Shown in pieces: positions 80 to 53,437 of a stretch of 64,000 nucleotides of DNA. Within the stretch, counting starts at the first letter, position 1. Each line of letters starts with the position of its first letter. A program made the position numbers and the translations under genes. The stretch covers positions 75,952,001 to 76,016,000 of the forward strand of contig OZ076409.1 in NCBI GenBank assembly GCA_964187785.1, read 5' to 3'. Under the pieces are notes generated by a model that saw only the letters and a program-made list of their open reading frames with translations, searched no databases and was not told the DNA's origin. This stretch comes from Amphiscolops sp. MND2022 (lineage: Eukaryota).

Positions 80-1367
80 GTGCCGGGATTTCTATTCGAT
101 AAAGTATGTGGCGCGCCTTGGGTAGGGTCCCTTGCGCGCTCTTGGGTATGGTGTTCACCAGCTAGGAAATAGGGGTCGATTTTTCGGGATCTCCTAAACT
201 AGCCACACGATTTGGCTGAAATTTGGCACACGTACTCCCCTCGGCATGGTGAAGATGATTCCCTACTAGCGTTTTGCTCGAAAAATTTTTTTTGTTGTCC
301 AAAATAACGGTTTTTGGGGTAAAATTTTGAATTTTTTTTAAATTTTATCTTATATCTCGCCACGGGTTTACGCTAGCGCTTCAAGACCCTGCTAAAGAAA
401 GCTTGCAAACTGTCTCAGGAATGCGGTGTGAAATTTTCAGCTCAATCGGACTTAAACTCAGGGAGATATAGCGTTTTTCCGGAGCGGGGGGGTTTCATTT
501 TTCTAACGGTCCAGCTTATCTTTGCCATTTTTTCGAAAATGCACTCGCCTAAAGGCCTCCCCTGGCCGGTTTTATTCCCAGCAAAACCATTTGGCCCTAA
601 ATACGGAGTTTCAGCGTTCCAGCATTCCCGGGCGAAAAGTTGTGGGACTTAGAAAGTTTCAAAAATTTTCAAAAAAAAATTTTTCCGTTTTCCGCCCTCC
701 CCCCCTAGGGGAAAAGACCCCCCAACCAGTAATTTGAGTGAATTCATGTGGAAAGGCCATGTTTGGAGGAGAAAAATACCGTTTAGATCGTCTTTTTATC
801 TTGGCTCAACGTTGACTTATGACGTTTTGAAGGTGATGTTTGGAGAAGTAAAGCACGTGAAATGTAAACGTTATGAGTATTTATATGATCTTAAAGCCAT
901 TGAGATGCAATCTGTTTTGCTCAAAACGTAATTCATATCCGTTTGGTAGTCAATCAACACCCTTTGTTGTCATTTGACATCTTTTTTTGTTGATATAAGA
1001 AAAAATTTTGTGTATTTATTCATTTTTTTCTCATCAAATAACTTGAAACAGTTGAGTACATTCCATCCCCCCTTCACGGGGGAGATGAGAATGTACTCGC
1101 AAAAAGCCCCAAACTACGGCCCTTACCTTCCTGAGCTACGCAGTATAAAGATTGCATATTGGTTCCGACATTTTGATAGAGTTATATCTTGGTAATCTGT
1201 CTGGGTATGCAGAAAAACCAGCACGTGCTTTTTTATACCAAGTTGCTCACAACGACATTTATTTTATATCAACGCCCCCATATTTATCAACGCCCCCCGT
1301 CCGTGGGCATGCCGAGGCATGCCCTTCGACGACGTATACCAAAATATGTTCGAGCGCGTTAGCCTAG
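80..1367 (+). mobile_element. Non-autonomous unit 1, family A (head GTGCCGGGATT), 1288 bp
   Basis: Bounded by CTAG|GTG junctions. Similar to units at 18743, 21281 and 46172. Confidence 0.8.
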
Positions 1368-2634
1368 GTGGCCGTGTCTTTTCGACGTGCTTTTGCATCG
1401 AGGAGTGGGTAGGGCCCCGCGACGACCTAGAAGAATTGGATGCTCACCGAAACGTGCAGAATTCTACGAGATCTCATAGTTTGAGCCATACGATTTTGCT
1501 GAAATTTGGCATGTGGCCTGGAATTGGTGAGTAGGTAAAACGTGTAGGAGGTGATTTTTCCCAAATTCCACTGTGAGACGAGATATGGGCAAATAACGGT
1601 CCCAAAAATGGCAAAAATGCACTTTTTTCAACTTTGTCAGCCCATATCTCGTTCCCAGGTGCCCGGAGCGGGACGCGTTAAGCTGATTATAAACTCTAGG
1701 GTGTTGAGGCTGTACGGGGAAGTCAGGCCCGTTCCGATCGGACTTGTAGTCTTGGAGAAATAACGGTATTTTTGGGGAACCTTTTCTAACGGTCCAGCTT
1801 ATCTTTGCCATTTTTTCGAAAATGTACTCGCCTAAAGGCCTCCCCCTGGCCGAATTTACTCCCAGCAAAACCATTTGGCCCTAAATACGGAGTTTCAGCG
1901 TTCCAGCATTCCCGGGCGAAAAGTTGTGGGACTTGGAAAATTTTCAAAAATTTTCAAAATTTTTTTTTTCGTTTTCCGGGCCCCCAATGAAGGGGAAACG
2001 ACCCCCAACCAGTATTTTGAGTGAATTCATGTGGAAAGCCCTTGTTTTGACGAGAAAAATACCGTTTAGAACATCTTTTTATCTTGACTCAACGTTGACT
2101 TATGACGTTTTGAATGTGATGTAAGGATGTAGGAGGCATGTGATAAGTTGATGTTTTGAGTCTTTATCACATATGAAAGCGGTTGAGATGCAAGCTGTCC
2201 TGCTCAAAACGTCTTTCGTTGTAATTTTCCAGTGCACCAATACCCTTTGGTGTCATATAAACATACTTTTCGTCGATATATTAACAATTTTAATGTATTT
2301 ATTCCCATTTTTATTATCTTATAACTCAAAACAGTTGAGTACATTTCATCTCCCTTTCGGGGGAGATGAGAATGTACTCGCTAAAGACCTAGCGCCATGA
2401 CCAAAAGTTTGAAACCCACGTTTTTTATCTTCTTACAGACTTGTTTTTGTATTTTTTCGGAATTTTTTAAAAATTAATATACTTGAAATACATTACTTGA
2501 CTTTACTACTACAACCCACCTCCAACGACAACGCCCCCCTGCTTGCATCAACGCCCACCGTCCGTGGGCATGCCGAGGCATGCCCTTCGACGACGTATGC
2601 CAAATGCCCAGTGCCACGCAGTCATTTTCGCTAG
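1368..2634 (+). mobile_element. Non-autonomous unit 2, family B (head GTGGCCGTGTCTTTTCG), 1267 bp
   Basis: Near-identical to units at 39815 and 44903. Confidence 0.8.
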
Positions 2635-4029
2635 GTGGTCGGGTATTTTTTTTTACTCGTATATGACGTTTGCGAGGCTTTGGGGAGGGCCCCGTGCCGA
2701 GCCTGTACCGAAATTGGCCACATGTAGAAATCTGGCACTAAAATGCGAGATCTCAAAAAGTAGCCGTTAGAAATTTCTGAAAATTTGCATGTGGCTCTGA
2801 ATCAATGAGTAATGAAAAAGTGTAGAAGTGACTACCTCTGAAAAAATGGTCCTTGTTGCACTTTTTGCGCAATTTCTGTCGCATTGTTGCGTTTTTTATG
2901 TCATTTTCGACTTTGGAGGCAAAAAACTCATAGATGCTTTATTCCTAGCGTACCAAGTGTGGAGCAGGAAAAGTTGCAGCATCTTCAATAACGTATGCTG
3001 AGAAAATTTGGTTGCCCTCTGGTTACCCCCCACAGAGATAGAGGGGTGCTTCCGGTTACTTTTGACCCGCTAAATTTGGGAAACTGCTAATTTTCGTAAA
3101 GAAGCCGTAGATTTAGCGTGTCCACACCCTGCTGAAGTATTGTTAGGCATTTTAAGATAGATCCGATGACATGCGTTCAGTTCACCCCCCATCACCCCCT
3201 GGACCGGAAATGAATTTTTTTGTGTACTTTAAGACCGGAAGTCTCCATTTTCACCGGTAAGGAGTCCTTGTACGAGCAACTAGCAAGACATCAAAATTGA
3301 AGGAAAACCTGGGGTCAACTTAGTGACCACGTCTTGTCCAGTCATGGGTTCCGCTAAGACCGGAAATGGGGTCAAAACCCCCCTTTTGGTCGTTTTTTTA
3401 TCAGTTTGACCAGAGTTTTTTCCATGTTCAAGTCGCAATGCACATCAAACCAGTGTGAACATAAACTACATATTTATTAAGTAGACGTACCTGACACTGC
3501 CATATACCGGAAGTAACCCCCCTGACCGGAAGTTGTCAATTTTGACCAGAAATGGTCCAAAAAGTAGCGATAAATCAGTTTCTCACTGGTTTTTAGGTCA
3601 AGTTATTACTTTTTTTTCTTTCTTATTGTTTTTTTCCTACTGAAAAACATACTTTGTAGCTTGTTTGGCTAAAGTTCTGGAAAGGGATCACCTTTATCAC
3701 CCCCGATAGCCTTCCAAGTTGACCTTGGGTCAATCTTGAAGGCTATCAGTTCAGAAAACGAAAAATTGTGGAAATTGGGTTTCTCCTTTTTGTTGTAATT
3801 TTTTCCATAAAGTCAATATGTTAAATGAGGCTTTTGTTCACCTGAGTGATCTGAAACTTGTCCAGAGGTGTCACACACACTAATACCATTTCAAGTTGAA
3901 GTAAACATATGAGGGTAGTATTAGACAACATCACACACAATTACCAACGCCCACCGTCCGTGGGCATGCCGAGGCATGCCCTTCGACGACGTATGCCAAA
4001 TAGCGCCACAGGGCGCCCCTATTTGCTAG
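2635..4029 (+). mobile_element. Non-autonomous unit 3, family C (ACCGGAAGT-rich), 1395 bp
   Basis: Bounded by junctions. Related to 4030-5418 and to the first ~1 kb of 47462-49631. Confidence 0.75.
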
Positions 4030-5418
4030 GTGGTTGGGGCGGTCCCCAGAACGCACAAGGAGGCGCGGGGAGGGTCCTGCGCCGACGTAGAATAATTTCA
4101 TATAATACTAGTATCCTACATGGGTGTTTTAGAGGCGATTTTGGAATCTAACCGTAGGATTTGGATAATTTTTTGCATGCGGCCATAACTCGAAATTCTA
4201 AGAACTTTTTCCTACTGTCATTTTCCCCGCAAATTGTTTTTTGTTGACTTATGGCCGAAAAACCGGAAATAACGTCCTTTTTAGACGTTATATCCGAAGT
4301 GTCGTCATAACTTTTTTCCAGGGCATGCTAGCGTTCTCGTTCGCTTTTACACTTAGTTGCAGCATCTCAAAATACAACTGGTGGAAAATTTTGGTTGCAT
4401 TCGGATCACCCCCCACCGAGATAGAAGGGTTCCCCCCTCCAGTTTTACCCCCCAAATTTGCAAAATAGCCAATTTTGAGCATGAAGCCGAGGATTTAGCG
4501 TACCCGCACCCTCCTGATGTTTTGTTGTACGTATTGGGGTCAATCTGACGACTTGTGTGGTTTTCACCCCCAACCCCCCCTTGGAACGGAAATGACACTT
4601 TTTTGTGTTTTTTGGCAGAATTTAGCCTTTTTCATTATTAGGCAGTCGTTTTAGGGACTCCTAGCAGGATATCGAAATTGAAATACAACCTGATCACAAC
4701 CCAGTGACAATATGTTGGCCACTTGGAGGTATCATCATGACCGGAAGTGGGGTCAACCCCCCTTTTTGTGACCGCTTTTTGACCTTGTGCACCAAAATGC
4801 CAACATCTTGAGGCCTAATGAGGCATTCAAATCTGTACAAAGATAAAATGTTAGACAACCGAAGTCCCGGAAGATCTTTAGCATATACCGGAAGTTACCC
4901 CCCATGACCGGAAGTTACCAAATGTGACCGGAAATGGTCCAAAAATTAATGAAAAGTTGAATTTTTCACTATTTCAAGACCACTTAATTGAAACTTTTCA
5001 ATCTCAAAACTAGCGTACTGGCTTGTTTTGCTGAATTTATGGAAATTGATGAGCTCTATCGCCCCCGATAGCCTTCGAAGTTGACCTTGCGTCAACTTTG
5101 GAGGCTATCGATAAAGAAAAATGAACAACAAAGTACATTGTTTCTCTCGTTTTTTTCCCGTTGTTTTTCCTCAAACTTTCTTGTGACATATACATGGCCG
5201 TTAGTTGAAATCAATATTAAGCCCATGTTATAGCTGGAGCAGCGAAGCGTTACACAGACTAGTGTGGTTCTGAAATCACACTTTTTAAATTAACAACTGA
5301 CCGTCTTAGTCAACTCCACACATTCATACCAACGCCCACCGTCTGTGGGCATGCCGAGGCATGCCCTTCGACGACGTATGACGAATCCATTCCAACGACA
5401 CCCGCAGTCCTCAGCTAG
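4030..5418 (+). mobile_element. Non-autonomous unit 4, family C, 1389 bp
   Basis: Bounded by junctions. Shares the internal hairpin GATAGCCTTC...GGCTATC and ACCGGAA repeats with unit 3. Confidence 0.75.
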
Positions 5419-6692
5419 GTGGCCGCGTCTTTTAGATGGACTTTTAACCCTGAGGCGCGGGTAGGGTCCTGCGCCGAAACAGAGAAATTATACTACTGCA
5501 CATAGTCCCGTTCCAGCAACGATCTCGAAAACTGACCGTTAGAAATTCCTGAAAATTTGCATGTGGCCCCCAATTGGCAAGCAATGAAAAAGTGTAGGAA
5601 GTCATTTTTCCCAAATTCCATTGTGAGAGGAGATATATGAAAAAAACGGACCCCAAAATGACGGAAATTTCACTTTTTGACAAAAAATGTGACATTATCT
5701 CCTCAGGCAAGGTTCGGAGCGAAATTTGTCAGAACCCAAACCTCCAGCAGACTGTTAGAGCAGTGCACACAGTAAATTTCAAGGAAATCGGATTATCACA
5801 TGTGGAGAAATTGACGTTTTTCCGGCGAAATTTCTGGCAAGTGCAGTCTATCTCTGCCATTTTTTGCCCAAAATTTTTCCGAGACCCTCTCCTAAAGGCC
5901 TCCCCTGGCCCAATTTCCTCCCAAAAAAACCATTTGGCCCTAAATACGAGGTTTCAGCGTTCCAGCATACCCGTGCGAAATTTTATGGGACTTAAAAAAT
6001 TTTCAAAAATTTTCAAATTTTTTCTGAAAAAGTTCAGGCCGCCCAAAGTGAAGAAACTTCCACACAACTAGTATTGCAAGTGAATGCATGTGGAAAGCCC
6101 TGCACTTGACGAGAAAAATGCCGTTTAGAACGTCTTTTTATCTTAACTTGACGTTGACTTATGATCTTTTGAGTATGGTATAACACGTGATCACAGTAGT
6201 AACAGTCCTAAGTTTCAATTTTTTTTTCAAACAAAAACGCATGAAAAGAACCTGGAAAAGGTACTGATAGGTCAGTTGGGATATCTGAAGCCTGTGTACA
6301 TTCCCGTAGTGTATAGCGGAGGTATTTGAGACTTATTAGAAATTGTGATATATTTTATACAAGTCTTTTTTTCTCTTAGAATCTTATGCCGTTGAGTACA
6401 TTCCATCTCCCTCTCAGGGGAGATGTGAATGTACGTTTGCCAAATGCCTTGTAAAGTTCACATCTTTGATGGATTAAACTAAGTAAACAAGTGTGAGTTG
6501 CGTTTGCCGAATCACTACAGCAAAAAATATTATAACTTTAGTGAGATTGAATGCTTTTTGTCTTTAGTGTTTTTTCTTGCATAGCCGACTTCCACATCCA
6601 AATATCAACGCCCACCGTCCGTGGGCATGCCGAGGCATGCCCTTCGACGACGTATGCCAAATACCATATGCCACGCAGTCTTTTCCCGCTAG
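5419..6692 (+). mobile_element. Non-autonomous unit 5, family D (head GTGGCCGCGTCTTTT), 1274 bp
   Basis: Bounded by junctions. 3' half is highly similar to unit 23827-25098. Confidence 0.8.
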
Positions 6693-7832
6693 GTGCCGGG
6701 ATTTCTATTCGTTCAAGGATGTTGCGCGTGTGGGTAGGGCCCCTGGCGCGCTCTTTTATTTCGGGTACACCTACTCCAAATTCACGATGTGATTTCGACG
6801 ATCTCGTAAACTAGCCACACGATTTGGCTGAAATTTGGCACACAGCTCCGTTGGAACATTGTAAGAACAAATCCCTACTGACGTTTTGCCCGCTAAACAT
6901 TTTTTGTTGGTCAAAAATGCGATTTTCCGACAAAATTTTTGACTTTTTTTTCTTTTTCAACTCATATCTCGCCACAGGGTTACGCTAGCGCTTTGCAACC
7001 TATGATCCTTTTTTGTAGGGCATTGCATGTAGAACACGTATGCCAAATTTGGTGGCGATCGGACTTAAACTCAGGGAGATATAACGATTTTTTAGGTGCA
7101 TTTTTTGACATTTTTTGCTTTTGCTGATTTATCTTTGCCGTTTTTTGCCCAGATTTTTTTTGAGACACTCTCCTAAAGACCTCCCCTGGCCGGTTTACCT
7201 CCCAGCAAAACCATTTGGCCCTAAATACGAAGTTTCAGCGTTCTAGCATTCCCGGGCGAAAAGTTGTGGGACTTAGAATAATTTTTTGGAAACGCAAAAT
7301 GTGTAAAGTCAACTTCAGGCCTCCCAAAGTCAGGGAACTTCCACACAACTAGGATTGCAAGTGGATGCATGTGGAAAGTACTGGGATAGACGAGAAAAAT
7401 GAGCTATAGAACGACTCTGTAGCTTAACTTGACGTTGACTTATGACAATTTTAGTGTGAGCTTGCTAAGGGGTCCGAAAGTCAAAAATTGAAAATTGAGT
7501 TATTCCAAAGCAAATACTCCTTTATATAGGCTAATTAGGTATCAGTAACGTGAAACACGGTTGTACGGAGCGATTATTATCATAGGCGATACGGTTCGTT
7601 CAAAAAAATGTCCAAAAATTTTTTCTCTTTTTTCGTAGGTTTTTTGTCTAGGATTTTTTTCTTTGGTTTTTTCCTTAGGTTATAGGTGTAGGTTATAGAT
7701 TAGGCTTTTTCTAAGGTCCTGTTTTGCTTTCCCTGTTCACTGCATAGTTTGTTTTTAGTGGCAGAAGAAGACGACGACGACCAAGCATACGAGTTTTTCT
7801 TTTTTTTTCCTTGGGTTTTCTTCGGGTTAATG

Positions 7833-7930
7833 GCTATCCCGAAACCAGGTGCTCCTGCTCGAGGGCTTCTCGGGCGCTGGTTTCGTGTATGGGGCTTTCC
7901 CCCCCAGTAGGTAACCTCTGCCCAAATTTT
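7833..7930. other. Hairpin module, diverged copy (stem CGAAACCAG/CTGGTTTCG followed by CCCCCCCAGTAGGTAACCTCTGCCCAAATTTT)
   Basis: Perfect 9-bp inverted repeat at 7840-7848/7877-7885 with an inner stem. The 3' box is shared with the modules at 8557, 26228 and 26965. Confidence 0.5.
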
Positions 7931-8556
7931 CAAACGTCCCTCGTAATTCGCATTTTGCCGGTGTCTTTTTTTTACGGGCGTTTCGTCGAAAAAGATAGAA
8001 TTTTTCTCGGAACCGGCAAAATCGGAAAATCAATCACAAAATAAACGACGTCGAGAAATCAATCAGACTTAACGGCGTCCAGTTGCTACAAAGAAGAAGT
8101 ACAGATTAACCATGCTTCAGTTTCAGGTGCCAATCAATCAAGCTCAAGATGTCTTTTTTTGTAACTTATTAAATAGTCCATAAAATTATGGAAATTAGGA
8201 AAATTTTCAAAGGTTGGTTTTTTTTTGAAATTTAATGCAACTTATTAACATATGTGCCAAAGCTTTTGAAAGCATTAGGAGAAATCAATATAAAGTAAAC
8301 CAATATGCAGTTTAACTGTTCTAACTTCCTTCAGTTTTAGTTCACAGATGAAGATTCGCCGTAGCGATACGTAACGTTTTTTATCTAAATCGAATTTGCG
8401 GAGACTCAATCTGCCTATCGTTCGCACGGTCGTTATTGAGCATAAATTACGCTCATTGAAAAAGTGCGTGATCAGCGTCGTTCAATTTTTACGTGTAATT
8501 ATCATAGGTGCCCATATGTTAAATTGTAAGAATAGAGGTAATAGGTTTTCAAAATC

Positions 8557-8660
8557 CGGCTCATCAGAAGTTAGCTTGCGGCGTTATGCTGAAGGCCCTT
8601 CTGATGATGCTATGTCCCCCCTTTTTTAGTGGGTAACCTATGCCCAAATTTTTTTCCAGC
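8557..8660. ncRNA. Candidate structured RNA/ssDNA module, copy 1
   Basis: Stem TCATCAGAAG/CTTCTGATGA plus a small hairpin TGGGTA-ACCTA-TGCCCA. Conserved with compensatory changes at 26228 and 26965. Confidence 0.5.
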
Positions 8661-9274
8661 AATTTTTCCCAGCATTTTTGTTTTTTGTGAGTCTTAACCA
8701 AAATAATTTCTGATACATATTTTTGATTAAATATTACTTCTTAAAGTAGCTTTTCATTGAATGGTTTTAATACAATCAGAATTGTTTTTCCTTGTAAAGT
8801 TTTTTTGTAATATGAGTTTGTAACTGATGTACATGAGAATGAATTCCACCAATAAAAGACTCGAAACCTCTTGTACTGTATGTTTGATGTATGTTTATTT
8901 TATACTGAGAGTCAAGTAGGACATTACGTCTCTCGATCAAATCATAGATTTTCTTCGCTCTTTTATTTCGTTAATTGCTATTTTCCAAGTGGAACCGCTT
9001 CACACATTTGATTTTGCAAAGAAACATTGAACAAAGGTATTGTTTTAGCATATTTAGAATCAAAATTGAATTTTTCACGTTTGAAAGATTATAAGATTTA
9101 CAAGTTCTCTGATTTTATCCATCGTCTAAAACTTGATTGACTCGATTTTGGTAATTGTTCCAGTGGCGCTTCAACTATTAATTCGATTTCATTAGCCAAT
9201 TCGGTTGATCCGTATCAAATTTTAGTCCCAATGAGATACTGAAATGTTCAATTTCGTTTCATATTTTCAGGGAT

Positions 9275-12200
9275 ATGCCTCCAAGGAGAAATCGGAGTGT
9301 TAGAAACAAGTGCTCCCGGTGCCGTGTGTTTATCCCTCAGTCTTCGACTTTGTGTGCCAGTTGTGCATCTTCCTCCGCCGAGGTAACTCATGACAACGAA
9401 GACAGCAGCAGTGTTTCTATACCCAACGAAGACAACCCTCGGAACATAGTTTACCCTCCTCGTTGTACATTATGTGGATTACATGAACAGTCACAAGGCC
9501 AACTTTGTTGTTTTTGCTGTCCTGTTACTTTACCCGTTTGTACAGATGCAGAATGTCAAAAGTGCCGAAGAATTACCTGTTCATCACTGAATTCAATTTC
9601 TATGGCAGATGTAAAGCAGACCGCGTTTGGTTGCCGATTACCGGGAGAAGCATCTGATTTTGCAAGACTGTGCAACGAGTGTACTCATTACGCAACACAT
9701 GGCTTCCGATCGCCATGGAGGAATATTTGGCCATGCGTCGTTTTAGATTTCCTCAGTGGTAAATATAATGGAATTGCTGATGGAAAACCATTCCATAAAG
9801 TGTTGCCTACTTCTATTTTGGAACAATATCAACATCTGTTGCAGTTTAACACTGATGAAAAAGAGACTGTTTTTGCTGACCTGACACACAAACTGCTGGA
9901 ATTCAAAAGTTTAAAACAAAACCTCAACATTGATGGAGTGCAGAAAGCCCATAACAAGTACAGTTTTCCAGAAGTTCGCTGTCCTTTTGGTTGTACTGAG
10001 TTCGTTGGCGACACGGGATTAATACCCTTGCAATACTTTCTTCTGACGTTAGACAAAAACTTTGCTTTTAACGGAATGAAGTGGAAAAGGCGATTACGTT
10101 GTGTTCGACCAGATTGGTTGACCCCATACAATCACAATGATGCCTTCAACGTAAGACCACACATTGTTGTCGACGAGAAACAAGGACTGTGTCTTGCAAC
10201 CTGTAAATTCCACAACGGGGGATCGCACCAGTTTTTCGTCCATCCACCTACAAATCCCACTGGCAGATTACCCTCGAAAAATGCAGATCGTCTTGGTCCA
10301 GCTACAGTTAGTTATAACTGCTACAAACCAAGCAAGCCCAATTTTTCCACTCACACCTTTTCAATGGGTGTGGCTAAGGGTAATTTCTCCGGAATTAGTT
10401 CGACCACAATTGCCTGTAAGCGAAGGTGGGATATCGCATTTGGTGAAGATGACGTCGTAAGAGAGTCTCTTTGTTCAAACAAACGACAGGATATAAAACC
10501 GCTGTTACAAAAACTTGTGCACAAAGGAGAGTTATCACAGAATCTCTTTGATAGCATTACATCAATTGAAGGTTTGCCTGACGATCAAACAATTCTGGAA
10601 TGTTTGAAGACTGCTACATCCGTCCCTTTGGAGTTAGCTCTTGCATTAAAGAAAATTCAAGAAGAAGGATTAAATGTAAACTATTTTCCGGTATTCTCCC
10701 ATCCTTTCACAAAATACGGATGTGATCCACCTGACACAGTTGTAAACCAGTCAATGCCGAAATATTTATGGATTTATGCTGTAATGTTTGCTTTGAGTTG
10801 CAACTTCCATTTGTCTCTTTTGAAATTCATTTCAACAGATAGTGCCTTCAAAAATGTGTTCCATTTTATGCTGATTAATGATGGTAGACTGGCTGATAAA
10901 AAGAAACGAGAACTTGCAGAGTTCCTTCAACGTTATTCACAAGATCCTAGTTATGACATGGTTGACAGTTTGGAACAATTGCTAACAAACATATCTTTCG
11001 TCAAACACTTCAATGTAACTGACAGAGAAAGTGTTGAATCAATTTTGAAATCTCTGACCGATGACAAAATTGTAACTTTCATTACCAATGCAAGGAGAAG
11101 AGACGATGGTTACTTGCCGGATAGAGTGGTAACTACGAATGGGTCAACATCATACGAACTACGATCAATTGCTGTCACTGAGGGCGGCAACGTAAAAACA
11201 CTCGTTAGACATGGTAATGAATATAATTGTTGGTGGATATACTCTACAGCTCATGAGACTCCATCAAAAATGGGTCTTGAAGATCTGGTGGAGATGAACA
11301 AATTTCATTCTAGTTGGTTGTCCTGCCATTACGAGATCATTGGTTCAGTTGACATGCAGAGAGAAAAATACCAGTACTTGGAATATTTAGGAGGCCAAGG
11401 ACGATTCATTTGTGACGATCATCATGTCCCTCTTACAGTAGCCAGAAAAAATACTCCGACTCTTTGTTCGTTCAGTACCAGCTGTCAGCGAAAACCCGCT
11501 TGGAATTGCCCGTCGGAGAACTGCTTGTCGTCAGTCTGCCGTACTCATTTCGCACAACACCAGCTTAGCAATGAACGTTTCTTTGTCAAATGCCCCACTT
11601 CAAATTGTGACGTTGTTCCTCCACATTCTGCTGAATGTTGTGATGATGATGTAGTTGTTTCTGAACCCGAATCAGACTACGATGAATTTTCTTTTACAAA
11701 TTTCACAACCGACACTGGTCATGTTGAAAATATGACAAATTGTTGTGCTACTGATTCTGGAGACATGCCGTCAGTCGTTGACAGTGTTGACACATCAATT
11801 CCTGCCCATATTTTGCTAAACACTGATTGTCATGTACTAGAAAGGAAGAACTACAGAATTGACCGTTCCAAAACAAGTTCTCGATTTTTACAAAACATTG
11901 TCGCAAGATCATCTGGTAACTCCATCCCTCTCATTTACCCTGACGCAGCACTCTTCCCTACACATTATTATCATGAACAGACGGACAATACTATTACTGG
12001 CGCTGTTCCGGCTCCTCTCTTTTGTGATAAACAGAGCAAACACTTTCTCTTTGCAAGCATTGAGGATCATAAGCGATCAGCTGTTCTGAACCCAAATCTT
12101 TTGCAATCAACCGACGTTAGAAGTATTCAGACATCTTTCGACACCGTGCTGAATAAACGTCTCACTTTTTCCGATACACGTTTGGTTCTCAATCGAGGAT

Positions 12201-28761: not shown

Positions 28762-28984
28762 GTAATGAATTGTTACAAATTAAACAAAACGTTTTTGTAA
28801 AGATAATTCAAAACAATACCTATTTCGTATATGGAAAAAAATTAGGCATGAAATGATCGTTTGGGAGTAGCAAATTTACACACAATTTGAATTTATAAGA
28901 ATTTAAAAAACTAGGAAGATTTTTAGCCTGAGGTTGAGAATTCAAAAAACTTACTTTGTTTCTGTTAATTAAATGTTGTTTCAG

Positions 28985-33976: not shown

Positions 33977-34059
33977 GTAAGTTGTTCAACTTTTTTAAAA
34001 AATGTAAAAGTCGTTGAAGCCTTTTAATTGAAAAATAATATTTTATAATTTTTTAACAG

Positions 34060-42363: not shown

Positions 42364-43633
42364 GTGGCCGTGTCTTTTCGACGTGCTTTTGCATTGAGGA
42401 GTGGGTAGGGCCCCGCGACGACCTAGAAGAATTGGATGCTCACCGAAACGTGCAGAATTCTACGAGATCTCATAGTTTGAGCCATACGATTTTTCTGAAA
42501 TTTGGCATGTGGCCTGGAATTGGTGAGTAGGTAAAACGTGTAGAAGGTAATTTTTCCCAAATTCCACTGTGAGAGGAGATATGGGCAAATAACGGTCCCA
42601 AAAATGGCAAAAATGCACTTTTTTCAACTTTGTCAGCCCATATCTCGTTCCCAGGTGCTCGGAGCGGGACGCGTTAAGCTGATTATAAACTCTAGGGTGT
42701 TGAGGCTGTACGGGGAAGTCAGGCCCGTTCCGATCGGACTTGTAGTCTTGGAGAAATAACGGTATTTTTGGGGAACCTTTTCTAACGGTCCAGCTTATCT
42801 TTGCCATTTTTTCGAAAATGTACTCGCCTAAAGGCCTCCCCCTGGCCGAATTTACTCCCAGCAAAACCATTTGGCCCTAAATACGGAGTTTTAGCGTTCC
42901 AGCATTGCCGGGCGAAAAGTTGTGGGACTTGGAAAATTTTCAAAAATTTTCAAAAAATTTTTTTTCGTTTTCCGGGCCCCCAATGAAGGGGAAACGACCC
43001 CCCAACCCTTATTTTGAGTGAATGCATGTGGAAAGGTCATGGTTAGAGGAGAAAAATACCGTTTAGATTGTCTTTCTATTTTAACTTGACATTGACTTAT
43101 GACGTTTTGAATGTGATGTTAGGATGTGTGAGGCATGTGAAAAGTTGATGTTTTGAGTCTTTATCTCATATGAAAGCAATTGAGATGCACGCTGTCCTGC
43201 TCAAAACGTCTTTCGTTGTAGTTTTCCAGTGCACCAGAACCCTTTGGTGTCATTTGAACATACTTTTCTTCGGTTTATTAACATTTATAATGTGTTTATT
43301 CCAATTTTTATTATCTTATAGCTCAAAACAGTTGAGTACATTTCATCTCCCTTTCGGGGGAGATGAGAATGTACTCGCTAAAGACCTAGCGCCATGACCA
43401 AACTTTGAAGCGCACGTTTTGTATCTTCTTACAGACTTGTTTTTGTATTTTTTCGGATTTTTCAAAAAAATAATAATATACTTGAAATACATTACTTGAC
43501 TTTACTACTACATTCCACCTCCAACGTCAACGCCCCCCTGCTTGCATCAACGCCCACCGTCCGTGGGCATGCCGAGGCATGCCCTTCGACGACGTATGCC
43601 AAATGCCCAGTGCCACGCAGTCATTATCGCTAG
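42364..43633 (+). mobile_element. Non-autonomous unit 15, family B variant, 1270 bp
   Basis: Near-identical to unit 49632-50903. Confidence 0.8.
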
Positions 43634-44902
43634 GTGGCCGGGAACTTTTTTTCCTGCATTTTTCTGTCCAATTGGGGGAGGGGCCCCAAGTGGCTGTTAT
43701 CCGGTTTTACTACCTACCCTAAACACGCTCAAAAAATGACGATCTCGAAAACCACCCCTTAGATTTTCCTGAAATTTTGCATACAGGCCTAGAATCAAAT
43801 CCTAAGAACTATTTCCTACTGGCGTTTTTCCGAATTTTTTCAAAAAGTTGGTCAAAAATGCAACAAAAGTTGCCAATGGACATAAAAAACGCAACTTTTG
43901 GACTTTGAAGGCTAATATCTTTTTCCAGAGTGCCCGGAGCGGTTCGCACGTGGACCACAATATTGCTGAGCATTGTCGGGGGAGTGCGTGGAAAAATTTT
44001 GGTTTGAATCGGATGAAAATTGATTGAGAAATAAACGCAAATTTTCGTGCATTTGTTGCAAATACCAGTCTATCTCTGCCATTTTCGCCCAAAATTTTTC
44101 CCAGAGCCTTTACAGGAGGCAACCCCTGCCCAAATTTCTGCCGAGCAAACCCATTTGACCCTAAATACGAGGTTTCAGCGTTCTAGCATTTCCGGGCAAA
44201 AAGTTGTGGGACTTTGAAAAATTTCAAAAAATTGCAAAAATTGTAAAAAGTAAATTCTGGCGTCCCAAAGTCAAGAAACTTTCACACAACTAGTATTGCA
44301 AGTGAATGCATGTGGAAAGTACTTGGATAGACGAGAAAAATGAGCTATAGAACGACTCTCTAGATTAACCTGACGTTGACTTATGACAATTTGAGTGTGA
44401 GCATCCTATAGGATTTCAATGTCAAAAATGAGATTTTGTAAGTCATGTCTAATCAAAAACTCATCGGAACACGTTCAATCAGCCCCATAGCTGTTCAATC
44501 ACTGTGGCTTAGTATAGCAACGCCATTTACTATCTTTAGGCCCATTTTGAAAATTTTCGTTACCGTCTTATTCGTCCGATATCACGAAACAGTTGAGTAC
44601 ATTCCATCTCCCCCTTGGAGGGAGATGAGAATGTACTCGCCAAAGACCTGATACAATGGCCCATATTGGATTATCTTTGACCTTTCTCACGATATTGCAC
44701 ACGGATAGCTGTGTTTGGTAAAAGTTTTCCTTTGCACCATGTCTCCAGAAGCTGAACCACTTCTTTAGCTTACTACTACTCAAACATCACTAACGTCAAC
44801 GCCACATACTCGCATCAACGCCCACCGTCCGTGGGCATGCCGAGGCATGCCCTTCGACGACGTATGCCAAATAGCGCCACAGGGCGCAAACTTGTCCGCT
44901 AG
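43634..44902 (+). mobile_element. Non-autonomous unit 16, family E, 1269 bp
   Basis: Bounded by junctions. 3' half is related to units 21 and 22; tail is shared with unit 10. Confidence 0.78.
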
Positions 44903-46171
44903 GTGGCCGTGTCTTTTCGACGTGCTTTTGCATTGAGGAGTGGGTAGGGCCCCGCGACGACCTAGAAGAATTGGATGCTCACCGAAACGTGCAGAATTCT
45001 ACGAGATCTCATAGTTTGAGCCATACGATTTTGCTGAAATTTGGCATGTGGCCTGGAATTGGTGAGTAGGTAAAACGTGTAGGAGGTGATTTTTCCCAAA
45101 TTCCACTGTGAGACGAGATATGGGCAAATAACGGTCCCAAAAATGGCAAAAATGCACTTTTTTCAACTTTGTCAGCCCATATCTCGTTCCCAGGTGCCCG
45201 GAGCGGGACGCGTTAAGCTGATTATAAACTCTAGGGTGTTGAGGCTGTACGGGGAAGTCAGGCCCGTTCCGATCGGACTTGTAGTCTTGGAGAAATAACG
45301 GTATTTTTGGGGAACCTTTTCTAACGGTCCAGCTTATCTTTGCCATTTTTTCGAAAATGTACTCGCCTAAAGGCCTCCCCCTGGCCGAATTTACTCCCAG
45401 CAAAACCATTTGGCCCTAAATACGGAGTTTCAGCGTTCCAGCATTCCCGGGTGAAAAGTTGTGGGACTTGGAAAATTTTCAAAAATTTTCAAAAATTTTT
45501 TTTTTCGTTTTCCGGGTCCCCAATGAAGGGGAAACGACCCCCCAACCAGTATTTTGAGCGAATTCATGTGGAAAGCCCTTGTTTTGACGAGAAAAATACC
45601 GTTTAGAACATCTTTTTATCTTGACTCAACGTTGACTTATGACGTTTTGAATGTGATGTAAGGATGTAGGAGGCATGTGATAAGTTGATGTTTTGAGTCT
45701 TTATCTCATATGAAAGCGGTTGAGATGCAAGCTGTCCTGCTCAAAACGTCTTTCGTTGTAATTTTCCAGTGCACCAATACCCTTTGGTGTCATATAAACA
45801 TACTTTTTGTCGATATATTAACAATTTTAATGTATTTATTCCAATTTTTATTATCTTATAACTCAAAACAGTTGAGTACATTTCATCTCCCTTTTGGGGG
45901 AGATGAGAATGTACTCGCTAAAGACCTAGCGCCATGACCAAAAGTTTGAAACCCACGTTTTTTATCTTCTTACAGACTTGTTTTTGTATTTTTTCGGAAT
46001 TTTATAAAAATTAATATACTTGAAATACATTACTTGACTTTACTACTACAACCCACCTCCAACGACAACGCCCCCCTGCTTGCATCAACGCCCACCGTCC
46101 GTGGGCATGCCGAGGCATGCCCTTCGACGACGTATGCCAAATGCCCAGTGCCACGCAGTCATTATCGCTAG
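44903..46171 (+). mobile_element. Non-autonomous unit 17, family B, 1269 bp
   Basis: Near-identical to unit 2. Confidence 0.8.
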
Positions 46172-47461
46172 GTGCCGGGATTTCTATTCGTTCGAGTATG
46201 TGGCGCGTGTGGGTAGGGCCCCTGGCGCGCTCTTGTGTTTGGGGGTTTCCTACTTCTAAATCACGTTCAGATTTCCGGGATCTCGTAAACTATCCATACG
46301 ATTTGGCTGAAATTTGGCACACGTACCCCCCTCGGCACGGTGAAGATGATTTCCTACTGACGTTTTTCCCGCTAAACATTTTTTGTTGACCAAAATAACG
46401 GTTTTTGGTGGAAAATTTTTGATTTTTTTTAAATTTTATCTTATATCTCGCCACGGGTCCACGCTAGCGCTTCCAAACCCTGCTGACGAAACCTCGCAAA
46501 CTGTCTCAGGAATGCTGTGTGAAATTTTCAGGTCAATCGGACTTAAACTCGGGGAGATATAGCGTTTTTCCGGAGCGGGGGGGTTTCATTTTTCTAACGG
46601 TCCAGCTTATCTTTGCCATTTTTTCGAAAATGCACTCGCCTAAAGGCCTCCCCTGGCCGGTTTTACTCCCAAAAAAACCATTTGGCCCTAAATACGGAGT
46701 TTCAGCGTTCTAGCATTCCGGGGCGAAAAGTTGTGGTACTTAGTAAATTTCAAAAATTTTCAAAAATTTTTTTTTCGTTATTTGGGCCCCCAAAGTGGGG
46801 GAAAAGACCCCCCAACCAGTAATTTGAGTGAATTCATGTGGAAAGGCCATGTTTAGCGGCGAAAAATGCTTTTTAGATCGTCTTTTTATTTTAACCTGTT
46901 GTTGACTTATGTTGTTTTGAAGGTGATGTTTGGATGTGTGAAGCATGTGAAAAGGTAATTTTTTGTGTCTTTATCTCTTCTAAAAGCCATTGAGATGCAA
47001 TCTGTTTTGCTCAAAACGTAATTCAATGCAATTTGGCAGTCAATGAACACAATTTGGTGTCTTTTGTTATATTTTTCTGTTGATATAATAAAAAATTTTG
47101 TGTCTTTATTAATTTTTTTTAAATAAAATAACTTGAAACAGTTGAGTACATTCCATCCCCCCCTTCCGGGGGAGATGGAAATGTACTCGCTAAAAGCCGC
47201 GAACAAGAGCCCATACCTTCCTGCGCTACGCAGTATAAAGATTGCATGTTGGTTCCGACTTTTTGGTAGTGTTATATCTTGGTAATTTGACTGAATATGG
47301 AGAAAAATCAGCAAGTGCTCTTTTATAGCAAATTGCTGACAACGACAATTTTTTTATATCAACGCCCCCATATTTATCAACGCCCCCCGTCCGTGGGCAT
47401 GCCGAGGTATGCCCTTCGACGACGTATACCAAGATATACTCCCGAGCGCGGTAGCCGCTAG
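46172..47461 (+). mobile_element. Non-autonomous unit 18, family A, 1290 bp
   Basis: Similar to unit 1. Terminal hairpin carries a G-T variant (GGTATGCCC). Confidence 0.8.
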
Positions 47462-49631
47462 GTGGAGGTTATTATATATCAATTAAAGTGTTTTTTTCCG
47501 GAGTTTGTGGCTTTGGAAAAAACAAAAGGCGAGAAATTGGGCACTCCAGGCTGAACCTAAAAACACCCTAAAATTCGCCCGATTTTTTTACGATCTCGAA
47601 ACCCAACCGTACGATTTGGCTGAAAATTTGCATGTGGCTCCTAATCAATGAGTAATGAAAAAGTGTAGGAGTGACTTTTCCTGGGAAAATTGTTTTTGTT
47701 GCACTTTTTGCGCAATTTTTGACCGATTGTTGCGTTTTTTATGTCACTTTTGACTTTTCAGGCAAAAAACTCATAGATGCTTTGATCCTAGCGCATCGAG
47801 TGTTTCGACCAAAAAGTTGCAACATGGTCTTTTACGTACGTTGAGAAAATTTGGTAGCCATCGTATTACCCCCCACTGAGATAGAGGGAACTTCCGGTGG
47901 ATTTTCGCACTCTAAAAACGAGGACCTCCTAAATTTCAGCATGAAGCCGTAGTTTTAGCGTGCTCATACCCTGCTGAAGTTTTGTTGGGCATATTGAGAT
48001 AGTTATGATATCATGTGTTCAGTTCACCCCCCATCACCCCCTGGACCGGAAATGAACTTTTTTTGCACTATCATACCGGAAGTCTCCAATTTCACCGTTA
48101 AGCAGTTCTTGTACGAGCAACTACCAGGACATCAAAATTGAAGTACCACCTGAGGTCAACGTAGTGACTACGTGTTGTCCAGTCATAGGTTCCGCTATGA
48201 CCGGAAATGGGGTCCAAACCCCCTTTTTTGGTTGTTTTTCAACAATTTTACGAGTGTTTGGTCCACATTCAAGTCGCGTAAGTCAATTGAATCAGTGTGA
48301 GCATAAACTGTATGTTCACTGCGTAGACGTAACTGACACTGACAGATACCGGAAGTAACCCCCCGTGACCGGAAGTTGTCATTTTTGACCGGAAATGGTC
48401 CAAAATGTAGCGTAAAATCAGTTTTCCACTGCTTTTTAAAGTCAACTTATTATTTTTTCAATCTCCGCGAGCTTGTATTCAGGTTCGTTTTTGTTACCCG
48501 TGCACTTTGCAACAAATATACATCTGTAAAATTTTCTCTATAATATCTTCGGATAGAGAAATAACGTGTTTTTGAGACTTTTTTCAAAAATATTAGACTA
48601 TATCTGTCATTTACCCAAAGTTTTTCAACATAACGACCACAGTGGTTCGTCTCTGCCCAAATTTGTGCCTAAAAAACTATTTGGCCCATTGGCCTCAGTT
48701 TGAGCGTTCCAGCTTTGCGTGATCATAAGCTAAGGGACTTGAAAAAATTTCGAACTTTTTTCAAAAAAAAATTCTCACATTCATGTCTCCCAAAGTGAAG
48801 AAACTTCCACACAACTAGGATTGCAAGTGGATGCATGTGGCAAGCCCTATAATTGAAGGGAAAAATGCCGCTTAGAACGTCTCTTTATCGTAACTTGACG
48901 TTAACGTATGGTGCTTTGAATGAGAGCTTGATAAGAGGTCGAGAAGTCAAAGTGTGTAAATGGAACGTATGTCTCGTCGAAAACTCACCGGAATTCATGC
49001 AATGAACCCCAATTGTCCTCAATTGCAGTTGCCTACTGCAACAACGTCTTTCTGGTACATTTTACTCTTTTTCATAAGTGTCAAAATTATTTTTAAATTC
49101 AGTTAGCAAGAAACACTTGAGTACATTTTCATCTCTCCCCAGCGGGTGAGATGAGAATGTTCTTGCTAAATGCCAGGTACTACGGCCCCCCTTTTGTTTT
49201 AATGCGACGCATTCTCTGCTTTAGCACATAGATATTTCATTTCGCCTGGTTTTTTGTATACTCTCTGACTTGTTATTATAAAGTTCTCGTCATTACTGTA
49301 CATAAATTTACAACCATAAATCGTTATCGGCAACGCCACATACACTTAGACACCCACCATTCTGTAGGTATGTCGAGGCATACCTTTCGATTATGTCATA
49401 ACGCAAACGCGATAAAAAGTGCTGAAATTCAGAAACAGTGACAATCAATTTTCACTATTTGACATATGGTAGGTTTTTATAGGGAACTTACACATCACTG
49501 ACATTTCACAACATTCCAGCTGACGCCCACATACCATATCAACGCCCACCGTCCGTGGGCATGCCGAGGCATGCCCTTCGACGACGTATGCCAATTTTTT
49601 TATATCTACACTCAATTGCGGTAGCAGCTAG
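47462..49631 (+). mobile_element. Composite non-autonomous unit 19, 2170 bp
   Basis: Family C 5' part, diverged standard 3' part, relic terminal hairpin at 49366-49385 without CTAG, then an intact terminus at 49557-49631. Confidence 0.72.
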
Positions 49632-50903
49632 GTGGCCGTGTCTTTTCGACGTGCTTTTGCATTGAGGAGTGGGTAGGGCCCCGCGACGACCTAGAAGAAT
49701 TGGATGCTCACCGAAACGTGCAGAATTCTACGAGATCTCATAGTTTGAGCCATACGATTTTTCTGAAATTTGGCATGTGGCCTGGAATTGGTGAGTAGGT
49801 AAAACGTGTAGGAGGTGATTTTTCCCAAATTCCACTGTGAGACGAGATATGGGCAAATAACGGTCCCAAAAATGGCAAAAATGCACTTTTTTCAACTTTG
49901 TCAGCCAATATCTCATTTCCAGGTGCCCGGAGCGGGACGCGTTAAGCTGATTATAAACTCTAGGGTGTTGAGGCTGTACGGGGAAGTCAGGCCCGTTCCG
50001 ATCGGACTTGTAGTCTTGGAGAAATAACGGTATTTTTGGGGAACCTTTTCTAACGGTCCAGCTTATCTTTGCCATTTTTTCGAAAATGTACTCGCCTAAA
50101 GGCCTCCCCCTGGCCGAATTTACTCCCAGCAAAACCATTTGGCCCTAAATACGGAGTTTCAGCGTTCCAGCATTCCCGGGCGAAAAGTTGTGGGACTTGG
50201 AAAATTTTCAAAAATTTTCAAAAAATTTTTTTTTTCGTTTTCCGGGCCCCCAATGAAGGGGAAACGACCCCCCAACCCTTATTTTGAGTGAATGCATGTG
50301 GAAAGGTCATGGTTAGAGGAGAAAAATACCGTTTAGATTGTCTTTCTATTTTAACTTGACATTGACTTATGACGTTTTGAATGTGATGTTAGGATGTGTG
50401 AGGCATGTGAAAAGTTGATGTTTTGAGTCTTTATCTCATATGAAAGCAATTGAGATGCACGCTGTCCTGCTCAAAACGTCTTTCGTTGTAGTTTTCCAGT
50501 GCACCAGAACCCTTTGGTGTCATTTGAACATACTTTTCTTCGGTTTATTAACATTTATAATGTGTTTATTCCAATTTTTATTATCTTATAGCTCAAAACA
50601 GTTGAGTACATTTCATCTCCCTTTCGGGGGAGATGAGAATGTACTCGCTAAAGACCTAGCGCCATGACCAAACTTTGAAGCGCACGTTTTGTATCTTCTT
50701 ACAGACTTGTTTTTGTATTTTTTCGGATTTTTCTAAAAAATAATAATATACTTGAAATACATTACTTGACTTTACTACTACATTCCACCTCCAACGTCAA
50801 CGCCCCCCTGCTTGCATCAACGCCCACCGTCCGTGGGCATGCCGAGGCATGCCCTTCGACGACGTATGCCAAATGCCCAGTGCCACGCAGTCATTATCGC
50901 TAG
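49632..50903 (+). mobile_element. Non-autonomous unit 20, family B variant, 1272 bp
   Basis: Near-identical to unit 15. Confidence 0.8.
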
Positions 50904-52170
50904 GTGGCCGGGAATTTTTTTTCTGCTCAATTCTTTGCCAACTGGGGGAGGGGCCCCTGGTGGCTGTTACCCAAATTACATACCTACCCAAATCGTCCGC
51001 TCCGGATACGATCTCAAAACTGAGCCACACAATTTTCCTGAAACTTTGCATGTGAGCCTAAAATGAGATTGTAAGAACAATGATATAGGCGTTATTCCTG
51101 AATTTTTTCAAAAAGTTGGTCAAAAACGCAAAAAATGGGTCAAAATTGACCTCTTTTTCAACTTTTTTATTTTTGAGAGCCCATATCTCGGAACGAGGTG
51201 GCCGTAGCGGGCCGCATAAGGACTCCGTTTTTGCTGGGCACTTGATGAGGAGTGCGTGGACAAATTTTCGTCCAAATCGAAGGAAAATTGACTGAGTAAT
51301 GAGTGATTTTTTGACGACCTTTTTTGCGAACCCCATTGTATCTCTGCCATTTTCCGCCAAAATTTTCAAAAATGCTTCTACAGGAGGCAACCCCTACCCA
51401 ATTTTCTGCAAAACAAAACCATTTGGCCCTAAATACGAGGTTTCAGCGTTCTAGCATTCCCCGGTGAAAAGTTATAGGACTTAGAAATTTGTCATTGAAA
51501 CGCAAAATTTGTAAAGTCAACTTCCGGTGCCCAAAAGTCACAAAACTTTCACACAACTAGTATTGCAAGTGAATGCATGTGGAAAGTACTGAAATAGACG
51601 AGAAAAATGAGCTATAGAACGACTCTCTACCTTAACCTGACGTTGACTTATGATGTTTTGAATGTGAGCATCCTATCTGATTTTAATGTCAAAAATGAGA
51701 TTTTGTAAGTCATGTCTCATCAAAAACTCAACGGAATACGTTCAATCATCCCCATAGCTGTTCAATTGCCGTGGCTTAGCGCAGCAACGCCATTTAATGT
51801 CTTTGGACCCAATTTGAAAATTATCGATACCGTCTTATTCGTCCGATATCACGAAACAGTTGAGTACATTCCATCTCCCTCTTTGGGGGGAGATGAGAAT
51901 GTACTCGCTAAAGAGCTGGTACAATGGCCCATATTTGTTTTTAACTGACGCTTCTCATGATATTTCACACGTACACCTCTATTTGGTAACACATTTTCCT
52001 TTGCACCATGTTTATATATGCTAAACCACTTCTTTACCTTACTACTTCTACTCTAACATCACCAACGTCAACGCCACATACTCGCATCAACGCCCACCGT
52101 CCGTAGGCATGCCGAGGCATGCCTTTCGACGACGTATACCTAGTATACGCGTTAGCGCGGTAGCCGCTAG
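50904..52170 (+). mobile_element. Non-autonomous unit 21, family E, 1267 bp
   Basis: Close tandem relative of unit 22. Confidence 0.8.
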
Positions 52171-53437
52171 GTGGCTGGGAATTTTTTTTCTGCTCAATTC
52201 TTTGCCAACTGGGGGAGGGGCCCCTGGTGGCTGTTACCCAAAATACATACCTACTAAAATCGTCCGCTCCGGAGACGATCTCGAAAACCAATCCATAACT
52301 TTTTCTGAAACTTTGCATGTGGGCCTAAAATGAGATTGTAAGAACAATGATATAGGCGTCATTTCTGAATTTTTGCAAAAAGTTGGTCAAAAACGCAAAA
52401 AATGGGTCAAAATTGACCACTTTTTCAACTTTTTTATTTTTGAGAGCCCATATCTCGGAACGAGGTGGCCGTAGCGGCCCGCATAAGGACTCCGTTTTTG
52501 CTGGGCACTTGATGAGGAGTGCGTGGACAAATTTTTGTCCCAATCGAAGTAAAATTGACTGAGTAATGAGTGATTTTTTGACGACCTTTTTTGCGAACCC
52601 CATTGTATCTCTGCCATTTTCCGCCAAAATTTTCAAAAGTGCTTCTACAGGAGGCAATCCCTGCCCAATTTTCTGCAAAACAAAACCATTTGGCCCTAAA
52701 TACGAGGTTTCAGCGTTCTAGCATTCCCCGGTGAAAAGTTATGGGACTTAGAAATTTGTCAGTGAAACGCAAAATTTGTAAAGTCAACTTCCGGTGCCCA
52801 AAAGTCACAAAACTTTCACACAACTAGTATTGCAAGTGAATGCATGTGGAAAGTACTGAAATAGACGAGAAAAATGAGCTATAGAACGACTCTCTACCTT
52901 AACCTGACGTTGACTTATGATGTTTTGAATGTGAGCATCCTATGTGATTTTAATGTCAAAAATGAGATTTTGTAAGTCATGTCTCATCAAAAACTCATCG
53001 GAATACGTTCAATCATCTCTATAGCTGTTCAATTGCCGTAGCTTAGTACAGCAACGCCATTGAATGTCTTTGGACCCATTTTGAAAATTATCGATACCGT
53101 CTTATTCGTCCGATATCACGAAACAGTTGAGTACATTCCATCTCCCTCTTTGGGGGGAGATGAGAATGTACTCGCTAAAGAGCTGGTACAATGGCCCATA
53201 TTTGTTTTTAACTGACGCTTCTCATGATATTTCACACGTACACCTCTATTTGGTAACACATTTTCCTTTGCACCATGTTTATATATGCTAAACCACTTCT
53301 TTACCTTACTACTTCTACTCAAACATCACCAACGTCAACGCCACATACTCGCATCAACGCCCACCGTCCGTAGGCATGCCGAGGCATGCCTTTCGACGAC
53401 GTATACCTAGTATACGCGTTAGCGCGGTAGCCGCTAG
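52171..53437 (+). mobile_element. Non-autonomous unit 22, family E, 1267 bp; last unit of the array
   Basis: Ends CCGCTAG followed by unrelated TTAAGAG. Confidence 0.8.

Follow-up and report, generated by a model that had tools for sequence, protein, structure and literature searches.

A head-to-tail array of Helitron-like elements in Amphiscolops sp. and the near-constant length of its short units

The stretch of DNA analysed here, 64 kb (64,000 nucleotides) of contig OZ076409.1 from Amphiscolops sp. MND2022 (GCA_964187785.1, positions 75,952,001 to 76,016,000 of the forward strand) and referred to below as the window, contains a head-to-tail array of Helitron-like units, most of which carry no genes and are almost equal in length. 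The question raised by this locus is what keeps units of divergent sequence at one length. The evidence on length comes from this single window, with about eight families of short units and about 11 steps in segment length. Within this scope a real constraint on length is moderately supported, with the lengths of internal segments differing mostly in steps close to one helical turn that offset one another within the unit.

Units of the array and their length

Units were defined by cutting at CTAG after every conserved 3' box, which yields 22 units (U01–U22), every one starting with GTG. Twenty of them are non-coding, and two large ones (12,050 and 14,716 bp), termed here helpers H1 and H2, encode RepHel proteins (Table 1). 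The 34-bp core of the 3' box is found 23 times, always on the + strand and with 0–2 mismatches, and CTAG follows it at all 23 unit 3' ends. The units are flush, with neither spacer nor duplication and with CTAG|GTG at 22 of 22 junctions; the string CTAGGTG occurs only once more on the + strand, in the flank, and is absent from the − strand. The final CTAG is followed by T and unrelated DNA (CTAG|T at 53437/53438).

Seventeen of the 20 non-coding units are 1264–1290 bp long (mean 1272.8, standard deviation (SD) 7.2), the others measuring 1395, 1389 and 2170 bp, and these values agree number for number with those of a first-pass annotation of the window. That annotation regarded the families as alike only in short shared boxes, which is not the case, since all 17 short units align end to end at 53–99% identity and are homologous throughout, the central part, some 420 columns of the alignment, reaching 70–73% among family representatives. 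The 17 units form about four deep clades and eight families, so that the effective sample is about 8 rather than 17. Their homology explains part of the uniformity, not all of it. The equal length that had been singled out as unusual does go beyond inheritance, as judged from the compensation among segments described below, while the share of common ancestry in it had been understated.

From one of the 23 conserved anchors to the next, the distance is constant or takes one of a few discrete values. Segments of 24, 25, 13, 13, 11, 8, 24, 43, 13, 15 and 10 bp have the same length in all 17 units, and other segments occur as 136/145–146, 62–63/72–73, 42–43/52–53 and 190/199–201/212–213/220–224 bp, with 7 of the 11 steps amounting to 9.5–12.5 bp. 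Total length has an SD of 4.1–7.9 bp, compared with 17–19 bp if the segments were independent (permutation P 0.0005–0.004, 6–8 representatives), and a sign-flip test that preserves relatedness places the observed compensation among 1–4 of 128 outcomes (P 0.01–0.03). The difference in length reaches a plateau with divergence (means of 2.2, 9.5, 10.7 and 6.7 bp in four bins); thus, the plot of length against divergence proposed in the first-pass annotation, made within the window, shows no growth. Neutral indels were simulated on a tree of the units that totals 2.76 changes per site, giving a median SD of 17–42 bp (P ≤0.021) for power-law indel sizes with assumed exponents and of 12–18 bp (P 0.002–0.10) for the recent indel spectrum of the elements themselves. 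Pairwise gap counts were kept out of the evidence because misalignment generates offsetting gaps.

AA/TT periodicity of 9.8–11.2 bp reaches significance in 9 of the 10 units analysed and in none of 8 control stretches. A GC period of 164–184 bp does so in 9 of the 10 units and in one of the 8 controls; seven of the 10 units are related 1.27-kb units, and these are therefore not 10 independent tests. The body shared by U03 and U04, which is unrelated to the 1.27-kb class (about 43% identity to it, 60% between the two), has the same periodicities, and the 10-bp signal is found in none of four non-coding parts of the helpers. The lengths of head and tail compensate each other somewhat better inside a unit (SD 1.8) than over a genomic junction (SD 3.0), a weak difference.

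Unit ends, helpers and unit order

All units end with a 3' module in which short direct repeats about 20 bp apart precede the near-invariant 34-bp core. The core carries a hairpin with an 8-bp stem that ends 43–55 nt ahead of the unit end, some of the tails having additional small hairpins, and in H1, H2, U21 and U22 a G-C pair of this stem is replaced in a compensatory manner by A-T. The head of a unit forms with its own tail a short, imperfect inverted repeat of 4–9 bp. Own pairs of head and tail pair better than random ones (P 0.002–0.018 in two window settings), while genomic junctions do not (P 0.22–0.31), and the tail of a unit tracks its own head (rho 0.39, P<0.001). Folding of 40+40 nt junctions was too noisy to be used. 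Rfam gave only three weak matches in the window, far below the gathering score, and no known RNA family. The 3' box has no match in viral contigs, with no confirmed RepHel relative among 35 viral candidates, and a metagenome scan with an 18-mer, too short a query, returned 120 loci, none of them with the longer box at ≤10 mismatches.

The short units are, judging by their shared modules, non-autonomous Helitron-like elements and partners of the helpers, because the latter carry the same 5' and 3' modules: the first 806 bp of H1 are 82% identical to U08, the first 741 bp of H2 are 98% identical to U14, and the last ~100 bp are common to the helpers and all units. The part from +750 to +1170 of the short units is present in neither H1 nor H2, so the short units are not simple deletion derivatives of these helpers, a kind of element that the first-pass annotation had mentioned. 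This part includes a 44-bp hairpin at about +960 to +1010, found in 17 of 17 short units (z −5.96) and absent from H1, H2, U03 and U04. Two other ways of delimiting the units were discarded: the first 750 bp could not be taken as a separate host repeat hit by a shorter element, as neither helper has GTG or another terminus at +740–800, and recombination at the 34-bp box was rejected as the unit boundary since tails travel with the upstream body.

Along the array the units follow one another in random order, as judged from the identity of adjacent units (P 0.17), the correlation between neighbours (P 0.32 and 0.66) and the lags, none of which is significant, and neither local homogenisation nor a higher-order repeat was found when looked for across the array. 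Copies that are 99% identical (U02/U13/U17 and U15/U20) lie 5–43 kb apart with different neighbours on both sides, and their identity begins at GTG and stops at CTAG. The single unit is thus the mobile entity. Only one of the 11 pairs at ≥94% identity, U21/U22 (97%), is adjacent. Because the order is random and the 99% copies have different neighbours, the array likely grows by insertion of new copies exactly at existing CTAG ends. The units are also mosaic, with B and B' copies 95–100% alike over the first 600 bp and 87–94% beyond. U19 includes in its second half a decayed 3' box (49331–49390), about 140 bp ahead of an intact, fresh 3' end, the pattern expected from read-through and capture of a new end. 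Only one matching sequencing run was listed, and no RNA run; a joint from 42357 to 46166 (depth 2.1) in an assembly of its reads, with 42 contigs of mostly read size, fits a tail-head pairing absent from the window and is too weak for use. In one ENA assembly, full-length RepHels of several families lie on contigs of equal size (for example, six from three clusters at 1,394,692), which hints at further clusters, provided that equal size means the same contig.

Both RepHels carry HUH, catalytic tyrosine and Pif1 motifs and are 26–31% identical. In Pfam, H1 RepHel matches Helitron_like_N (4.9e-8) and PIF1 (1.3e-8). Taken by itself, this protein matches GIY-YIG only below the cut-off (E 0.026), and no such match is found at the C terminus of H2 RepHel; the domain is listed for 14 of 19 scanned relatives, above the cut-off in 11 of the 19, and the family profile matches SLX1 (E 5e-7). 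The clade with this GIY-YIG-like C terminus is widespread, with 300 clusters at E<1e-30 and a hagfish relative at 30% identity. By its content alone, the window is eukaryotic, with a predicted GT-AG intron in one ORF and a LINE to the right of the array, and the hagfish relative makes an animal likely. Helraiser is unmatched at E≤1 by the single protein and is reached by the profile only at 2e-17, below bacterial Pif1. The upstream exon of H2 matches the N termini of related RepHels (BLASTP E 1e-26), two of which carry OTU above the cut-off, and it starts with a short peptide ending in NPGP (27705–27775), presumably akin to the 2A-like signals of non-LTR elements.

The accessory protein encoded downstream of each RepHel looks like an RPA/Teb1-type oligonucleotide-binding (OB) fold in the predicted model of the H1 protein (pLDDT 50.6; 32.7 for the single-sequence model). 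The best Z score is 7.0, where the tool sets its mark at 8, with an rmsd of 3.6 over 131 aligned residues, and the top nine rows of the fold comparison (VIA) are RPA, Teb1, POT1 or RMI1. The similarity rests on the C-terminal half, residues 1–150 being modelled with low confidence. The best Pfam match has E 0.026, no PDB sequence match was found, and there is no capsid among the fold rows listed.

Table 1. Coordinates of the array, its units and selected features within the window (ORF, open reading frame)
Feature	Position	Strand	Remarks
Head-to-tail Helitron-like array, U01–U22	80..53437	+	Left side open, tail of a further unit at 1–79
U01 (family A, 1288 bp), U02 (family B, 1267 bp)	80..2634	+
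U03, U04, second size class (1395, 1389 bp)	2635..5418	+	Ends as in other units, body different
U05 (family C, 1274 bp)	5419..6692	+
Helper H1 (U06, 12,050 bp)	6693..18742	+
H1 RepHel ORF, 2327 aa	9275..16258	+	HUH Rep, Pif1 helicase, C-terminal GIY-YIG-like domain
H1 accessory ORF	16819..17796	+	Predicted RPA70C/Teb1/POT1-like OB fold, cysteine cluster
U07–U11 (families A, D, A, E, C; 1274, 1264, 1272, 1274, 1272 bp)	18743..25098	+
Internal 44-bp hairpin, example	19705..19748	+
Helper H2 (U12, 14,716 bp)	25099..39814	+
H2 upstream exon, OTU-like region	27705..28856	+	Pfam OTU E 0.18 only
H2 RepHel, two exons	28996..35810	+	Predicted 83-nt GT-AG intron 33977–34059, interrupts Walker A
H2 accessory ORF	37704..38537	+	28% identical to the H1 RPA-like protein
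U13–U18 (families B, B2, B, F, B, A; 1268, 1281, 1270, 1269, 1269, 1290 bp)	39815..47461	+
3' terminal module, example	41000..41082	+	Two short direct repeats, 34-bp core, family-specific tail, CTAG
U19, 2170-bp chimera	47462..49631	+	First 1 kb U03-like, then a diverged 1.27-kb-type half
U20–U22 (families B, G, G; 1272, 1267, 1267 bp)	49632..53437	+

Ahead of RepHel, both helpers contain a ~120-bp motif (8552–8660, 26226–26340, 26962–27070) that is 84–88% identical between them, against 26–31% for their proteins; H2 has two copies of it, apparently through an internal duplication of some 750 bp. It can form a long stem with two compensatory pairs among the three copies, has no Rfam match, and is possibly a promoter or a structured RNA; a hammerhead ribozyme was dropped, as one copy lacks the hammerhead core. 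The full-length RepHel relatives P0009, P0016, P0106, P0110 and P0123 lie on ENA/JGI contigs of 10.5–11.8 kb, about one helper in size, which could be element-sized contigs or circles. To the right of the array, 1.7 kb beyond its end, a long interspersed nuclear element (LINE) at 55180–58941 contains an ORF1-like frame and an endonuclease-reverse transcriptase frame, the latter frameshifted near 58510, and the region 62380–62960 resembles a decayed Tc1/mariner transposase by eye only. There is no CpG depletion in units, helpers or flank (observed/expected 0.89–0.98).

What may hold the length constant

The explanation that we favour, which could equally well prove right or wrong, is a Helitron-like stack growing at its CTAG ends, with short units that would keep their length through a geometry of double-stranded DNA selected at each transposition. 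By analogy with the biochemistry of Helraiser, RepHel would copy one unit out as a circle with a junction identical in sequence to those of the array, so that a resident junction would offer a ready target. Either such a CTAG|GTG junction or the final CTAG|T would serve in strand transfer, and the array would lengthen by single-unit insertions. Many gene-less families would compete for few helpers, with better-copied variants being selected at the level of the element. The best copied would be those in which the conserved boxes all face one side of the helix and the circle takes up about seven nucleosomes while leaving a junction free, as the turn-sized steps and the ~170-bp period suggest. 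An indel of one turn would be tolerated and later offset elsewhere, or by a module swap in the conserved central block. What is selected is likely the geometry of the circle during transposition, whether helical or nucleosomal. The first-pass annotation had proposed selection on size or on the geometry of the DNA, and this is supported by the offsetting steps of about 10 bp and by the periodicities of 10–11 and ~170 bp. These fit the circle size or the nucleosome phasing named there.

Several observations weigh against this explanation. In a simulation with indels of 1–3 bp only, the median SD is 6–9 bp (P 0.06–0.74), and total length becomes unremarkable; the comparison with neutral indels that had been suggested earlier favours constraint under power-law sizes, does so in part under the elements' own spectrum, and does not under this one. 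The remaining 4 of 11 steps are of 5–6 bp, all near the unit ends, and pairwise gap lengths give a shoulder at 8–11 bp with no sharp peak. Since the 1389/1395 class and the 12–15 kb helpers have these ends too, a length of 1.27 kb is not strictly required; it would be an optimum for one lineage rather than a rule. Lengths of 1270 and 1392 bp do not differ by one nucleosome repeat. When the widest window is used, the pairing of ends weakens to P 0.04–0.10 and that of neighbours comes to P 0.05; in addition, the tails of U21 and U22 are mismatched to their own heads. Around both helpers the order is H-y-x-y' (6693–22552 and 25099–43633): the head of a helper has its best match in the second unit that follows, and the units that come next are relatives (94% and 96%). 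Similarity at lag 2 is in excess (P 0.07–0.10); local conversion or duplication may contribute to the array.

The same array could also have kept its lengths mostly without selection, if all short units go back to a single ancestor of 1.27 kb and gene conversion in A/T-periodic DNA, slipped or out of register, shifts modules by one turn while the total is kept. The homology of all 17 units, their mosaic nature and the fit of the small-indel simulation agree with this, and the −10/+10 pair around a 93-bp module is explicable by a single out-of-register conversion. Eleven segments unchanged in 17 of 17 units over 2.76 changes per site, compensation that spans several segments in the sign-flip test, and the same periodicities in the unrelated body of U03/U04 speak against it, and we consider such neutrality unlikely, if still a serious contender. 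A role for the host is rather improbable: the array would be centromeric, subtelomeric or insulator chromatin in which unit length phases nucleosomes along the chromosome. In addition to the two periodicities, the cited portions of published work associate Helitrons with Meloidogyne centromeres (PMC13404089), place Helitron-like repeats at Hydractinia subtelomeres (PMC11934779) and describe Helitron-derived 10-bp periodic DNA as an insulator in C. elegans (10.64898/2026.08.08.743475). However, half of the array (26.8 of 53.4 kb) is helper DNA, the non-coding parts of which lack the 10-bp signal, head and tail offset each other more tightly within units than across junctions, if weakly, the right flank contains the LINE, and a search of the window for telomeric repeat dimers found none.

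The centromere-like satellite considered in the first-pass annotation finds no support in the structure of the array, with its random order and lack of higher-order repeats. The related possibility that a Helitron-derived repeat was expanded by unequal crossover or rolling-circle concatemers, and scrambled later by gene conversion, has a low probability; adjacent U21/U22 and the H-y-x-y' dimers would fit it, and Helitrons in tandem have been reported (PMC12001565; in bats and at the centromeres of plants according to the relevant parts of PMC5876387 and PMC5148889, which cite such work). Against it stand the lack of higher-order structure, the single adjacent pair among 11, the sibling identity that begins and ends at junctions, and the intact helper ORFs. 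Least credible of all is that the short units are packaged satellites with a size fixed by a capsid, as in satellites of geminiviruses or nanoviruses. The analogy is one of similar size, a shared stem-loop end and an HUH helper. Packaging had also been proposed at first and is made unlikely by the only accessory ORF being OB-fold-like; moreover, steps of a helical turn indicate double-stranded DNA, and the helpers are ten times larger and contain an intron.

A more elaborate arrangement is possible, and we regard it as rather doubtful. A distinct RepHel-GIY-YIG clade would live as self-built cassette arrays, in which each CTAG|GTG would be both replication origin and integration site and copies would work only in tandem, the 3' box of the upstream unit licensing the next one. 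Helpers unrelated to one another would swap ends with their parasites, and many families of the latter would be held to one chromatinised circle size in whole turns. If true, such arrays would represent ori-to-ori site-specific integration in a eukaryotic, chromosomal form, and they would show in nature which DNA geometry Helitron transposition requires.

The locus bears on how Helitrons choose the sites into which they insert and on what, apart from its termini, a non-autonomous copy requires. If the favoured explanation is right, the array represents end-targeted insertion at scale, and selection acts on gene-less rolling-circle elements through whole-turn internal spacing as well as through total length. 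Termini are now available for the widespread RepHel clade with a GIY-YIG-like C terminus, and a GTG start would escape tools that seek TC starts or inverted repeats of 11–18 nt. An HUH enzyme integrating at its own junction without duplication could help to stack DNA at one site.

Comparison with known systems

The comparisons below refer to the cited portions of each source. Where examined, the sequence features are those of the Helitron-like superfamily, with RepHel, no target-site duplication, and ends shared by autonomous and non-autonomous copies. As in HLE1 and Helraiser (PMC4778049, PMC5876387, PMC11417382), RepHel is accompanied by an RPA-like gene downstream, the 3' end is CTAG (23 of 23 units, within the HLE1 consensus CTRR), and T follows the last copy; HLE1 inserts between A and T, and the left end of the array lies beyond the window. 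The 5' end, however, is GTG in 22 of 22 units instead of TC, a shift by one base giving TG, and the invariant hairpin lies 43–55 nt upstream of the end rather than 10–12 nt, with further small hairpins in some tails. An SLX1-like C-terminal GIY-YIG is common in the clade of the RepHels from the window. Helraiser forms double-stranded DNA circles with precise end-to-end junctions that are active as donors (PMC4778049, PMC5876387).

With HLE2/Helitron2, Helentron and proto-Helentron (PMC3627910, PMC5148889, PMC11417382) the elements have in common an OTU-like region upstream and, in weaker form, an asymmetric inverted repeat of short length in which the 5' end is matched by a site ~15–25 nt before the 3' end, and one Sphagnum HLE2 family carries GIY-YIG. 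In the array, however, the repeat is imperfect, of only 4–9 bp and co-varying (P 0.002–0.10 depending on the window), the 5' base is G, joined to CTAG, instead of T with a T|T target, and neither H1 nor H2 RepHel nor any of the 19 relatives has a Pfam match to DUF6570 or apurinic/apyrimidinic endonuclease. The elements thus unite traits of HLE1, namely CTAG and a downstream RPA-like gene, with a weak terminal repeat resembling that of HLE2 (PMC11417382, PMC3627910). The HELIANO work mentions unclassified clusters, to which this RepHel clade may belong.

Head-to-tail Helitrons, Helitron-rich centromeres or subtelomeres and 10-bp periodic Helitron DNA are each already known, as far as the cited sources go. 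The combination of a multi-family stack, non-canonical 5' ends and turn-quantised length compensation was not found in the literature searched, which included few subscription journals and did not extend to Repbase. At maize r1, two unrelated Helitrons led Du et al. (2008) to argue for consecutive insertion at a CTAG end (PMC2267711). This pair and the arrays of bats and plant centromeres (as cited in PMC2267711, PMC5876387 and PMC5148889) show the same exact CTAG-to-5' junctions without a target base, and the same unrelated neighbours interpreted as consecutive insertions. Here, in turn, at least 23 units of about nine families and two helpers with 26–31% protein identity have common ends, the 5' end is GTG and not TC, and the lengths are held constant. 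The periodic A/T clusters (PATCs) in Helitron DNA of C. elegans (10.64898/2026.08.08.743475) have the same 10-bp A/T periodicity in non-autonomous copies. They form within a 35-bp minisatellite once the element has inserted, and the consensus lacks them, whereas the periodicity described here is present in young, near-identical families, without a minisatellite, and is accompanied by turn-sized indels and length compensation. The centromeric holo-clusters of Meloidogyne (PMC13404089) similarly group autonomous and non-autonomous Helitrons, and the subtelomeric arrays of Hydractinia (PMC11934779) similarly consist of tandem Helitron-like repeats, there at chromosome landmarks. Those arrays are interleaved with short satellites or locally amplified with broad lengths, whereas in Amphiscolops complete elements directly adjoin one another and the closest relatives do not lie side by side.

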